NCBI RefSeq assembly: GCF_006345805.1
Contig: NW_021823583.1
Coordinates: 1 to 21,824, forward strand
Direction of reading: 5' to 3'
Source: Octopus sinensis
Taxonomy: Eukaryota
Length of the DNA stretch: 21,824 bases
Shown here: positions 6,252-20,166 of the stretch, in pieces
How positions within the stretch are numbered: the first letter of the stretch is position 1
Layout of the letters: each line of letters starts with the position of its first letter
Notes under the pieces: model-generated
Told to the model about the DNA's origin: nothing
Databases searched by the model: none
Seen by the model: the letters and a program-made list of their open reading frames with translations, nothing else
Translations under genes and position numbers: made by a program

Positions 6252-6331
<80 letters not shown>

Positions 6332-6557
6332 GAAATATTAAAATTACTAAGTCTCTCTAAAAGAGAACAGCGGCAGCGTTCCCGGAAAATAATAGTTATC
6401 GCCATACTAATATGGCATTCTTATAAAAATAAGAATAAAGCTGTCCGCTTATTAGCTCCATGAGGCCATCGCCTTAAGTTAGCTATTTGATACACAAACT
6501 GTATCCATATAACCTTCGAACAACGGAGGTCAGTCGCTCCACACTACTTGACCGGCA

Positions 6558-6598
6558 GCTACAGACGCGTTTCGGGGTATTGCCCCTTTTCATGCAGC
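6558..6598 (-). ncRNA. Hammerhead ribozyme copy (one core T missing)
   Basis: Reverse complement of the 7356-7397 motif with a 1-nt deletion, possibly a sequencing error. Confidence 0.7.
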
Positions 6599-6914
6599 GT
6601 AGCCAGCCAGTAGGTGTCGCTTCCGACCATCTCTGTTCGATGGTTTTATTTACCTAGTTTCGGTGGAATACATCCACTTGTTTTCAATAATAGAAATATT
6701 AAAATTACTAAGTCTCTCTAAAAGAGAACAGCGGCAGCGTTCCCGGAAAATAATAGTTATCGCCATACCAATATGGCATTCTTATAAAAATAGATAAAGC
6801 TGTCCGCTTATTAGCTCCATGAGGCCATCGCCTTAAGTTAGCTATTTGATACACAAACTGTATCCATATAACCTTCGAACAACGGAGTCAGTCGCTCCAC
6901 ACTACTTGACCGCA

Positions 6915-6956
6915 GCTACAGACGCGTTTCGGGGTATTGCCCCTTTTCAATGCAGC
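6915..6956 (-). ncRNA. Type I hammerhead ribozyme, U3-A8 variant
   Basis: Exact reverse complement of 7356-7397. Confidence 0.85.
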
Positions 6957-7355
6957 GTAGCCAGCCAGTAGGTGTCGTTTCCGACAATCTCTGTTCGATG
7001 GTTTTTTTACCTAGTTTCGGTGGAATACATCCACTTGTTTCACAATAATAGAAATATTAAAATTACTAAGTCTCTCTAAAAGAGAACAGCGGCAGCGTTC
7101 CCGAAAAATAATAGTTATCGCCATACTAATATGGCATTCTTATAAAAATAAGAATAAAGCTGTCCGCTTATTAGCTCCATGAGGCCATCGCCTTAAGTTA
7201 GCTATTTGATACACAAACTGTATCCATATAACCTTCGAACAAGGGAGGTCAGTCGCTCCACACTACTTGACCGGCAGCTACAGACGCGTTACGAAACTAG
7301 GTAAATAAAACCATCGAACGGAGATTGTCGGAAGCGACACCTACTGGCTGGCTAC

Positions 7356-7397
7356 GCTGCATTGAAAAGGGGCAATACCCCGAAACGCGTCTGTAGC
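7356..7397 (+). ncRNA. Type I hammerhead ribozyme, U3-A8 variant; predicted cleavage after GUC at 7391
   Basis: gctgca TTGAAAA gggg-caata-cccc GAAA cgcg TC tgtagc. Stem I extends through a tac bulge to tggctggc/gccggtca and ctac/gtag. Confidence 0.85.
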
Positions 7398-7563
7398 TGC
7401 CGGTCAAGTAGTGTGGAGCGACTTACCTCCGTTGTTCGAAGGTTATATGGATACAGTTTGTGTATCAAATAGCTAACTTAAGGCGATGGCCTCATGGAGC
7501 TAATAAGCGGACAGCTTTATTCTTATTTTTATAAGAATGCCATATTAGTATGGCGATAACTAT

Positions 7564-7608
<45 letters not shown>

Positions 7609-7618
7609 GCACACACAC

Positions 7619-7890
7619 ACAGGCACGACAGAAGTGAATGGACTCCATATAAAACGTTGAGTTATGTTTATTTTAACTTGAAAAGGTTTATATTGTTTAT
7701 TAATGGACATTTTTATGTTTCAGGTTCTATATGTGACTGTTTAATCATGCTACGTACTACAGAAACCTGGGGAATGTTCAAATTTTACATACTCCGTATT
7801 GTGGGTCAATCTGAAGGTGAAAACCTTGGGATCCCGCTTTCTACATTTAATAGGGTCATTGTGTAGTTCACCAGTGAAGGGGAAAGTGTC
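7619..7890 (+). mobile_element. 5' fragment of a Tc1-like transposon (degraded N-terminal HTH)
   Basis: MLRTTE..RIVGQSEGENLGIPLSTFNRVIV*FTSEG resembles a Tc1 first HTH with an internal deletion; TIR-like start caggcacgacagaagtgaatggac. Confidence 0.5.
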
Positions 7891-16698: not shown

Positions 16699-16758
16699 AT
16701 TTGAGTACGTACGTTTCAAGATTAGCCAAATTCGACCCTTCTCTCATCAGCTCAGAAT
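16699..16758 (-). ncRNA. Type I hammerhead ribozyme
   Basis: Same motif. Confidence 0.85.
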
Positions 16759-17537
16759 GCCCTTGTTTGAGTTTGAAAACACTGAAAATGGGAGCATACC
16801 CTTTCGGCTTGTTATCGCTTCTGAAGATCTGCTCCCAACTAACAGTGCTAGCTAACTCAAATATGCAAGAGAAAGATTTCTGTTCTCCCCTTCCACCAGC
16901 GTGGGTTAAAATCAGCAACACTACGCTTTTTTTCGGTAAAATCCAAGACAATTAAGTAGAGAGAGATGAATTATAATTTCAACAATTGAGGGTAAAATTA
17001 ATTAATTAATTAATCAATTTCACCAAGTATTCAGTATGTAAAGGGACCATTTAAGGCAAATTCAAATTATTACATTATATAAAAGGGCTTAGTAAAATAA
17101 ATTTCTTTGCCGCATACTGAACTCGTTAGAAATAGCGCTAAAAAAAACTATTTTTTTAGCTGCTATTTCTAACGAGTCAGTATGCGGCAAAGTAATTTAT
17201 TTTACTAAGCCTTTTATATAATGTAATAATTTGAATTTGCCTTAAATGGTCCCTTTGCATACTGAATACTTGGTGAAATTGATTAATTAATTAATTAATT
17301 TTACCCTCAATTGTTGAAATTATAATTCATCTCTCTCTACTTAATTGTCTTGGATTTTACCGAAAAAAAGCGTAGTGTTTGCTGATTTTAACCACGCTGG
17401 TGGAAAGGGGAGACAGAAATCTTTCTCTTGCATATTTGAGTTAGCTAGCACTGTTAGTTGGGAGCAGATCTTCAGAAGCGATAACAAGCCGAAAGGGTAT
17501 GCTCCCATTTTCAGTGTTTTCAAACTCAAACAAGGGC

Positions 17538-17596
17538 ATTCTGAGCTGATGAGAGAAGGGTCGAATTTGGCTAATCTTGAAACGTAGTACTCAAAT
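17538..17596 (+). ncRNA. Type I hammerhead ribozyme (1-nt deletion in loop III)
   Basis: Reads gaaacgtagtactca here. Confidence 0.75.
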
Positions 17597-18083
17597 AACC
17601 TTTGCATTTGATTTTTTAATGTCTCTACCCTCATACTTTCTTGGGTTGAATTGAGCAAGCACTATATGAGAGAGGTTTTCTTAAGTGTTAGAAATAGTTT
17701 TTTTTAGCTGCTATTTCTAACGAGTTCAGTATGCGGCAAAGTAATTTATTTTACTAAGCCCTTTTATATAATGTAATAATTTGAATTTGCCTTAATGGTC
17801 CCTTTGCATACTGAATACTTGGTGAAATTGATTAATTAATTAATTAATTTTACCCTCAATTGTTGAAATTATAATTCATCTCTCTCTACTTATTGTCTTG
17901 GATTTTACCGAAAAAAAGCGTAGTGTTTGCTGATTTTAACCCACGCTGGTGAAAGGGAGAACAGAAATCTTTCTCTTGCATATTTGAGTTAGCTAGCACT
18001 GTTAGTTGGAGCAGATCTTCAGAAGCGATAACAAGCCGAAGGGTATGCTCCCATTTTCAGTGTTTTCAAACTCAAACAAGGGC

Positions 18084-18143
18084 ATTCTGAGCTGATGAGA
18101 GAAGGGTCGAATTTGGCTAATCTTGAAACGTACGTACTCAAAT
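18084..18143 (+). ncRNA. Type I hammerhead ribozyme, predicted cleavage after GUA
   Basis: attctgag CTGATGA gaga-agggtcgaatttggctaa-tctt GAAAC gtac GTA ctcaaat; stem I extended by caaggg/cctttg. Confidence 0.87.
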
Positions 18144-18635
18144 AACCTTTGCATTTGATTTTTAATGTCTCTACCCTCATACTTTCTTGGGTTGAATTGA
18201 GCAAGCACTATATGAGAGAGGTTTTCTTTAAGTGTTAGAAATAGTTTTTTTTAGCTGCTATTTCTAACGAGTTCAGTATGCGGCAAAGTAATTTATTTTA
18301 CTAAGCCCTTTTATATAATGTAATAATTTGAATTTGCCTTAAATGGTCCCTTTGCATACTGAATACTTGGTGAAATTGATTAATTAATTAATTAATTTTA
18401 CCCTCAATTGTTGAAATTATAATTCATCTCTCTCTACTTAATTGTCTTGGATTTTACCGAAAAAAAGGCGTAGTGTTTGCTGATTTTACCCACGCTGGTG
18501 GAAAGGGGAGAACAGAAATCTTTCTCTTGCATATTTGAGTTAGCTAGCACTGTTAGTTGGGAGCAGATCTTCAGAAGCGATAACAAGCCGAAAGGGTATG
18601 CTCCCATTTTCATGTTTTCAAACTCAAACAAGGGC

Positions 18636-18694
18636 ATTCTGAGCTGATGAGAGAAGGGTCGAATTTGGCTAATCTTGAACGTACGTACTCAAAT
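18636..18694 (+). ncRNA. Hammerhead copy with GAAA reduced to GAA
   Basis: 1-nt deletion, possibly a homopolymer sequencing error. Confidence 0.7.
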
Positions 18695-19181
18695 AACCTT
18701 TGCATTTGATTTTTTAATGTCTCTACCCTCATACTTTCTTGGGTTGAATTGAGAAGCACTATATGAGAGAGGTTTTCTTTAAGTGTTAGAATAGTTTTTT
18801 TTAGCTGCTATTTCTAACGAGTTCAGTATGCGGCAAAGTAATTTATTTTACTAGCCCTTTTATTAATGTAATAATTTGAATTTGCCTAAATGGTCCCTTT
18901 GCATACTGAATACTTGGTGAAATTGATTATTAAATTAATTAATTTTACCCTCAATTGTTGAATTATAATTCATCTCTCTCTACTTATTGTCTTGGATTTT
19001 ACCGAAAAAAAGCGTAGTGTTTGCTGATTTTAACCCACGCTGGTGGAAAGGGGAGAACAGAAATCTTTCTCTTGCATATTTGAGTTAGCTAGCACTGTTA
19101 GTTGGGAGCAGATCTTCAGAAGCGATAACAAGCCGAAAGGGTATGCTCCCATTTTCAGTGTTTTCAAACTCAAACAAGGGC

Positions 19182-19241
19182 ATTCTGAGCTGATGAGAGA
19201 AGGGTCGAATTTGGCTAATCTTGAAACGTACGTACTCAAAT
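19182..19241 (+). ncRNA. Type I hammerhead ribozyme
   Basis: Same motif, intact. Confidence 0.87.
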
Positions 19242-20166
19242 AACCTTTGCATTTGATTTTTTAATGTCTCTACCCTCATACTTTCTTGGGTTGAATTGAG
19301 CAAGCACTATATGAGAGAGGTTTTCTTTAAGTGTTAGAAATAGTTTTTTTTAGCTGCTATTTCTAACGAGTTCAGTATGCGGCAAAGTAATTTATTTTAC
19401 TAAGCCCTTTTATATAATATATATACATATATATATACATGTATACATACATATATGTACCTGTTTTAGAACACAAAGAAACAAATGGTATTTGTACGTT
19501 GCCAAAAATTTTAATTGACTATATAGTTAATTTAATTTAATCTAATTTAATTAACCCAACTTAAATCAAATAAATTGCTAATACTTCCTAATTCTATTAT
19601 AAGTTTAATAAGTAATGCTACTCCCTTAATAATAATATAAGGAATTTTCACTATGATTTTCACTATATTTTGAATAAAAAAATACTCTCACACCTTTTAC
19701 TATAGAAATTAATTGACCTCTAGGTATAGACCTAAAGTCTGTCTTAAAATGTATAAATATTTGTATAAATAGTAACAATAATAAATAAATAAATAACCTC
19801 CTGTTCTAGTATTGCACTTAAATCTCTTAATGTATTTTCCTCTTTGACCCCTTTGATACTTTTTTTGTTCTCTTTATATTCTTTTACCTGCTTTAAACTC
19901 TGTAGGAGTGGTAGTTAACAGTTGTATGATGGTCAAAAGTAATGTTCTCTTCTATAAATCTCAGATTCCTGCAACTCTGACCTAAATTTTCTGTCACCAC
20001 ACAAATAAACTAATCTTTGTAAGTTGTGTACTTACACCCCTCCCTCCCTTTTGTCCCATAATGCCCTTATTTGGTTGGTTTCTGCTTCACTGACTCCTTT
20101 TAGCCAATATAGTCAATCTCTTCTTCCAACATAGTAGTTTTGTGAAATGAACAGAAGTGTGATCAG

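Follow-up and report, generated by a model that had tools for sequence, protein, structure and literature searches.

Penelope-like elements are described, in the sections of the literature accessible to us, as carrying an inverted pseudo-long terminal repeat (pseudo-LTR) and an optional tail of 30-40 bp that is often one-ended (PMC3846280, PMC8557442, PMC2377424), and the same sections of two papers call the origin of the inverted repeats and one-sided tails undefined (PMC8557442, PMC11167929). In the accessible part of an in vitro study of Anolis Poseidon, the enzyme, predicted to be a dimer, cuts and extends both target strands, and the tail lies between two internal start sites (PMC11167929). 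The non-LTR retrozymes of metazoans are portrayed in the available text as tandem repeats of a non-coding unit that contains a single type I hammerhead, for which copying from circles by Penelope-like enzymes has been proposed (PMC7229834; bioRxiv 10.64898/2026.07.22.740005). Here we analysed two tandem arrays of such a kind in Octopus sinensis, which lie on a whole unplaced 21.8-kb contig (NW_021823583.1, 21,824 nucleotides; hereafter the window) of a 2.7-Gb genome. The arrays are head-to-head insertions, and they probably arose when a dimer of a Penelope-type reverse transcriptase-endonuclease started synthesis from the two cut strands of a (TA)n tract, with one RNA, itself probably circular, as the template. 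The tail, the inversion and the two start sites have already been published, whereas neither the rule that each insertion has one end at each of two fixed sites nor arms of several laps were found described in the open-licence papers searched.

Each array is bounded by (TA)n and contains one orientation switch. Array 1 (6326-7566; 361-bp unit) lies between (TA)n target tracts at 6229-6325 and 7567-7607. Its arm A (6326-7290, minus strand) holds 2.7 copies of the unit and extends from an outer 3' end at unit position 361, designated site A, to an inner 5' end at unit position 116, while arm B (7292-7566, plus strand) consists of 0.76 unit with its outer 3' end at unit position 298, designated site B. 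At the inversion junction (7290-7292), unit positions 116 and 25 are joined with a single inserted A (7291). The 63 nucleotides (nt) between site B and site A form a 'tail' present at one end only (6326-6388, minus strand). Array 2 (15305-19418; 554-bp unit) is flanked by (TA)n target tracts at 15245-15304 and 19419-19456. Its arm A (15305-17153, minus strand) holds 3.3 copies between site A (unit position 554) and an inner 5' end at unit position 370, and its arm B (17151-19418, plus strand) holds 4.1 units with the outer 3' end at site B (unit position 452). The tail of about 102 nt is again present at the site A end only (15305-15406, minus strand), and the junction (17151-17153) joins unit positions 370 and 379 with a 3-nt overlap within a hairpin of the unit. 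Comparison of the 361-bp and 554-bp units revealed no sequence relationship, and no long open reading frame (ORF) was present in either array.

A motif scan detected hammerhead motifs in both arms of both arrays. Array 1 contains a type I motif with the variant core UUGAAAA (U3-A8) at 6921-6950 on the minus strand, with the predicted cut after GUC at 6921, and a second motif in arm B at 7362-7391 on the plus strand. In array 2, the motifs of arm A are at 15639-15595, 16199-16155 and 16750-16706 on the minus strand, and those of arm B, with a CUGAUGA core, at 17546-17589, 18092-18136 and 19190-19234 on the plus strand. The cores were matched in 2/4 unit-1 copies and 6/7 full unit-2 copies of the window, the others having small indels or substitutions. 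In both arms the strand that carries the hammerhead runs outward; all four outer ends therefore correspond to RNA 3' ends, which in unit coordinates of RNA sense are 361 and 298 for array 1 and 554 and 452 for array 2. The predicted cuts follow unit positions 123 (unit 1) and 266 (unit 2). The first-pass annotation of this DNA had thus read the outer ends correctly: all four run into (TA)n through short TA-rich motifs, the two ends of each array fall at different unit positions, and none is at the hammerhead cut. Its description of multimeric arms on both sides holds for array 2 and fails for the right arm of array 1, which is shorter than one unit.

To extend these observations to the genome, 200 loci were taken as the best BLAST matches plus a position-ordered sample of exact hammerhead-motif matches. 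The motifs are dispersed, with 1557 (unit 1) and 596 (unit 2) exact matches genome-wide and 0 for reversed controls; the position-ordered sample was drawn from the first 100 of each. Both ends were visible in 150 elements, or 131 once duplicates were removed. Correction by hand gave 132 insertions: three adjacent pairs were separated at the TA spacer, one tandem duplicate was counted once, array 2 was added, and four copies interrupted by a long interspersed nuclear element (LINE) were read through it. Long arrays extending beyond the retrieved stretch were excluded. The minus-then-plus order was found in 99 of the 131 unique elements, and plus-then-minus alone in none. Ends were scored against interval A at the unit end and interval B at about 298 (unit 1) or 452 (unit 2), which together span 8.6% and 7.4% of the respective units. 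These intervals contained 120/127 of the unit-1 and 107/108 of the unit-2 3' ends, together 227/235, and the two sites are 63 nt (unit 1) and about 102 nt (unit 2) apart. If the ends were chosen freely, half of the insertions would be expected to be A/A or B/B. The 105 two-armed insertions consisted of 96 A/B, 3 A/A and 0 B/B, with 6 having an end elsewhere (p 3e-25 against independent choice). The position-ordered subset gave 59 A/B, 2 A/A and 0 B/B among 65, and the picture was unchanged with strict intervals within families (75 A/B, 1 A/A, 0 B/B).

The two arms of an insertion were nearly identical at segregating sites. Opposite arms differed at 49/4459 comparisons (1.1%) in unit 1 and 14/5194 (0.27%) in unit 2, whereas different insertions differed at 9.3% and 30%, respectively. 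The arm-arm distance was below the between-insertion distance in 45/45 and 35/35 insertions and was zero in 62/80, and array 1 and array 2 each consist of a single haplotype throughout. Arm geometry was evaluated in 88 simple A/B insertions, including one duplicate. Of these, 54 had the longer arm on the A side and 33 on the B side; both arms exceeded one unit in 32/88, and the A arm extended past site B in 85/88. Among 57 junctions resolved exactly, 34 had no inserted bases and 23 had inserted bases, and at least 2 nt of microhomology was present in 20 of the 34 clean joins, against 17% expected by chance. Such microhomology-rich inner joins fit the end-joining of two independent complementary DNAs (cDNAs). 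Inner ends were not enriched at the hammerhead cut (6/176 against 4.4 expected). An apparent collision signal, B-arm inner ends just past site A in unit 1 (11/43, p 0.006), was discarded because four of these were alignment artefacts at the unit boundary and unit 2 gave only 2/45. Separately, foreign sequence of 133-151 bp had been captured at the inner junction of three insertions (L027, L066, L089), and one unit-2 insertion of about 13.9 kb (L157-L158, C2:27.92-27.94 Mb) had about 24 units in its A arm and less than one unit in its B arm.

The target of these insertions is rich in TA. Of 202 ends within the strict A and B intervals, 186 had a TA-rich flank. A common dispersed repeat contains a TA tract into which two of the insertions (L152, L184) have gone; in paralogues of this repeat, only a TA run separates the corresponding flanks, as had been anticipated for an empty site. 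In three other cases (L087, L125, L170), an insertion of one unit family was placed in the terminal TA tract of the other family.

An autonomous Penelope-like family was found through one retrieved flank, in which a cysteine motif precedes a GIY-YIG fragment. This young family has frames of 775-777 amino acids with RVT_1 (just below the curated cut-off) and GIY-YIG, and the cysteine motif, as described in the accessible part of PMC8557442, suggests that it is Neptune-like. Its copies (L278, 2421-6760; L241-L290) contain a hammerhead motif in the 3' region and a 49-nt AC-rich tail. Its boundaries with (TA)n fall at two sites separated by 49 nt, and the A site has a long TA run. Inverted copies on contigs 1-3 comprised 24 A/B, 2 A/A and 0 B/B (n=26; two pattern lists), and 7/8 retrieved inverted copies, a set partly overlapping with these lists, were A/B. 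The end motifs of this element scored highest at site A of unit 1 and, tied, at site B of unit 2. A tblastn search of the window with the autonomous protein gave no match, and none of 240 loci had a Penelope ORF fused to either unit. The arrays are thus Penelope-like in their apparent insertion behaviour yet non-autonomous. The Neptune-like copies show that the one-end-per-site rule is a property of Penelope-type integration, and the element itself is a candidate mobiliser only. A GIY-YIG-like fragment of a different Penelope-type family at L063 (~2740, minus strand) is another candidate partner.

We propose that a Penelope-type dimer would cut both strands of (TA)n, after which site A would be the start for one subunit and site B, which lies 63 or ~102 nt upstream, the start for its partner. 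Pairing of 1-4 nt may assist the start without choosing the site. Both subunits would travel in the same direction round the RNA, the A-primed one displacing the B-primed cDNA; on a circular RNA several laps would be possible, and each subunit would stop at random after 0.1-10 units. The truncated cDNA ends would then be joined by microhomology-mediated repair, and the stretch between sites A and B would correspond to the known Penelope 'tail'. Penelope-type enzymes are telomerase-like and are not known to carry RNase H. A more general proposal, to which we give slightly less than an even chance, is that two-ended priming by such enzymes is obligatory. One dimer would use one RNA and one fixed site per target strand, and its subunits would pursue each other round an RNA circle, displacing strands as they go. 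A single mechanism that can be read from genomes would then account for the tail, the inverted pseudo-LTR and the tandem retrozyme arrays alike, and the RNA circles would by now be a dedicated landing site for the LINE described below.

Several other routes to such arrays were considered. In the version of the first-pass annotation, TA microhomology set the end points, and priming could occur at any short TA-rich match in the unit, with variable end points. The mapped end points were neither variable nor at one position but at two fixed sites per unit, and better TA matches elsewhere were unused: the 5-nt matches at unit-1 180 and unit-2 344 were used by 0/128 and 0/104 ends. At site B of unit 2, a 6-nt match (450) ended 2 copies versus 36 ending at 452 with 2 nt, and 15 unit-1 B ends at 299-301 had 0-1 nt of microhomology. 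The microhomology at used sites was 0-4 nt in nearly all cases, mostly 2-4 nt and in phase with the flank. It is true that the used sites are TA-rich, as is the long run at the autonomous A site, and that small shifts inside site B track local TA matches (unit-2 452, 455, 458, 460; unit-1 295, 298), so that TA microhomology may fine-tune the exact base within a site. As the chooser of the site it is largely refuted already by these data and by the pairing of A with B, and we regard it as highly improbable. What stands of the earlier twin-priming proposal is that both strands were primed internally from (TA)n and that the two cDNAs were then joined; the single haplotype of the arms, the short microhomology at the joins and the paralogous empty sites of two insertions support it. 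Self-priming, proposed for Penelope inversions in the available text of PMC3846280, would start from a single priming event: the cDNA would turn back to serve as its own primer, and DNA synthesis on the first arm would yield the second. The array-2 junction, in a hairpin with nearly mirrored positions (370/379), has the appearance expected of this route, and inner ends were at most 10 nt apart in 7/88 insertions. This number is at chance level (4.2 expected; p 0.24 in each family), as are small loops: the implied fold-back loops were uniform over the unit, with 11/88 of at most 40 nt against 10.2 expected. Moreover, since either arm may be longer, a self-primed copy would need to stop at whichever site stayed unused. 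Inner joins at random unit positions, microhomology of 2-3 nt, the shared haplotype and the variable arm lengths together argue against snap-back, which we consider very unlikely.

The same Penelope-type double priming may instead have taken place on two sister RNAs, as dual priming in which the dimer is asymmetric, or along separate units of a linear multimer, with neither circle nor displacement. This would explain overlapping arms without displacement, and such arms are also seen in the autonomous element (L271), which is not necessarily circular. Variants recur with period 4 in L140 (2019-5587) and period 2 in L180 (2355-4836), which suggests that these copies had templates of four or two units, or that blocks of them were duplicated later. 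On the other hand, the genome contains many haplotypes, and two free RNAs should therefore often differ, yet 62/80 insertions showed no arm difference and 80/80 fell below the between-insertion distance. Two sister RNAs also offer no simple reason for the preference of A/B over A/A and B/B, and we judge this alternative unlikely. Finally, the arrays might be fold-back chimeras of long reads or a collapsed assembly, given that the units contain many single-base indels typical of a long-read consensus and that the window is an unplaced contig. The left and right flanks differ, the inner ends are offset and the pattern repeats on large contigs; the paralogous empty sites of L152 and L184 keep the flanks contiguous, and a read artefact cannot assign A to one end and B to the other. 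An artefact is thus barely credible.

Some observations weigh against priming of both strands by one dimer on a single circle. Among the three A/A insertions, two were apparently disturbed secondarily and one (L149) was clean, and A/A pairs also occurred in the autonomous family. One-armed copies made up 27/132 insertions, and one true chimera of unit 1 and unit 2 was found (L008). The A/B intervals were set post hoc and widened once. Gene conversion after insertion could be a source of homogeneous arms, and a homogeneous linear multimer would be an alternative source of multi-unit arms. Empty sites at allelic or orthologous positions were not recovered: among the matches listed for the assembled contigs of four runs, none bridged array 1 or L140, the flanks being repeats and the contigs breaking at (TA)n, and no allelic copy of the array 1 right flank was present among 40 scored assembly candidates. 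With regard to the candidate mobiliser, site B of unit 1 and site A of unit 2 had no match to the autonomous end motifs, and neither unit had significant homology to the 3' region of the autonomous element (best BLAST E 0.19). The Neptune-like element is therefore no more than a candidate partner. In the accessible part of the Anolis Poseidon study, the start site was equal between strands and non-homologous to the target (PMC11167929).

Both arrays are, as read from their sequence, non-coding hammerhead-bearing mobile elements of a retrozyme-like type, with self-cleavage predicted. Both units are well folded (z -3.9 and -5.4). An Rfam scan of the hammerheads left them uncalled and returned microsatellite noise only. 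A further hammerhead-like motif, degenerate in form (UUGAAAA ... hairpin ... GAAAC ... GUA), is present in unit 1 at positions 355-40 (e.g. 6651-6692, minus strand); it overlaps site A, and its stem I pairs poorly.

The LINE that interrupts some unit-1 copies is about 5.35 kb long, with an ORF1 containing a zinc knuckle and an ORF2 with endonuclease, reverse transcriptase and zf-RVT domains, and is putatively L1/Tx1-like. Four copies were read end to end (L201, 1343-6692; L202, 1602-6955; L203, 1647-7010; L204, 7185-1824), and in all of them the 17-bp target duplication corresponds to unit-1 positions 63-79. At 30 LINE 3' ends (L211-L240; 30 of 32 matches examined), the target came next in 30/30, and beyond it there was more unit in 28 and the next LINE copy in 2. 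Among the papers listed by a literature search, none described a LINE that targets retrozymes.

The remainder of the window contains other sequences of note. Three further hammerhead motifs, at 10924-10986 (plus), 12825-12760 (minus) and 20461-20527 (plus), come from older unrelated elements, and the one at 12760-12825 is flanked by 118-bp inverted repeats (12595-12712 and 12857-12974; 90% alike). A LINE reverse transcriptase frame fragment unrelated to the arrays is present at 4821-5870 (minus). An old inverted pair of about 200 bp (15128-15314 and 20682-20880; 79% alike) surrounds array 2 and 1.2 kb to the right of it, and is too diverged to represent read fold-back. A decayed GIY-YIG frame was suspected at 19450-20690 and was not confirmed by tblastn.

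Compared with the metazoan non-LTR retrozymes, as far as their descriptions were available, both units are alike in lying within the reported size range and in being tandem and non-coding with one type I hammerhead per unit (PMC7229834; bioRxiv 10.64898/2026.07.22.740005). In the retrozyme descriptions available we saw no account of insertion ends, of inverted arms or of targets, and the available text of PMC7229834 gave 0 matches for 'inverted' and 'target site'. The insertion ends reported here constitute direct genomic evidence for the route proposed for retrozymes in the literature, in which Penelope-like enzymes copy circles. In the consulted part of PMC2837659, twin or dual priming of L1 has its first primer at the poly(A) tail and its second at a variable internal site, yields non-overlapping arms and is a minority outcome. 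The octopus arrays resemble it in the priming of both target strands, the inverted arms and the inner-junction microhomology, and differ from it in that both sites are fixed, the arms overlap by whole units and two-armed insertions are the majority outcome (105/132). The stop of the first cDNA at the second primer, as in L1, was not seen, since inner ends were unenriched beside the other primer site. Any target-site duplication would merge with the surrounding (TA)n.

The closest resemblance is to the Penelope-like elements. In the sections available, Penelope/Poseidon, Neptune and Naiad share with the arrays the head-to-head inverted 5'-truncated copy, the one-ended tail, the microsatellite or AT-rich target and the hammerhead motif (PMC3846280, PMC8557442, PMC2377424). 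Unlike the elements described there, the arrays have no ORF, their tails are 63 and ~102 nt long, and their arms reach several whole units. From the one-end-per-site rule, the shared haplotype and the multi-lap arms follow sharp predictions that the in vitro system already available could address. The hundreds of young copies of these short units and the young autonomous element of this genome make a convenient test set. As with Anolis Poseidon in the accessible data of PMC11167929, synthesis appears to start away from the hammerhead cut at two internal sites; the target match is 0-4 nt here, and the template in that assay was linear. The tail, which is optional or often one-ended according to the sections of the Penelope papers available, was present at exactly one end in 96 of the 99 insertions of the A/B class in Octopus sinensis.

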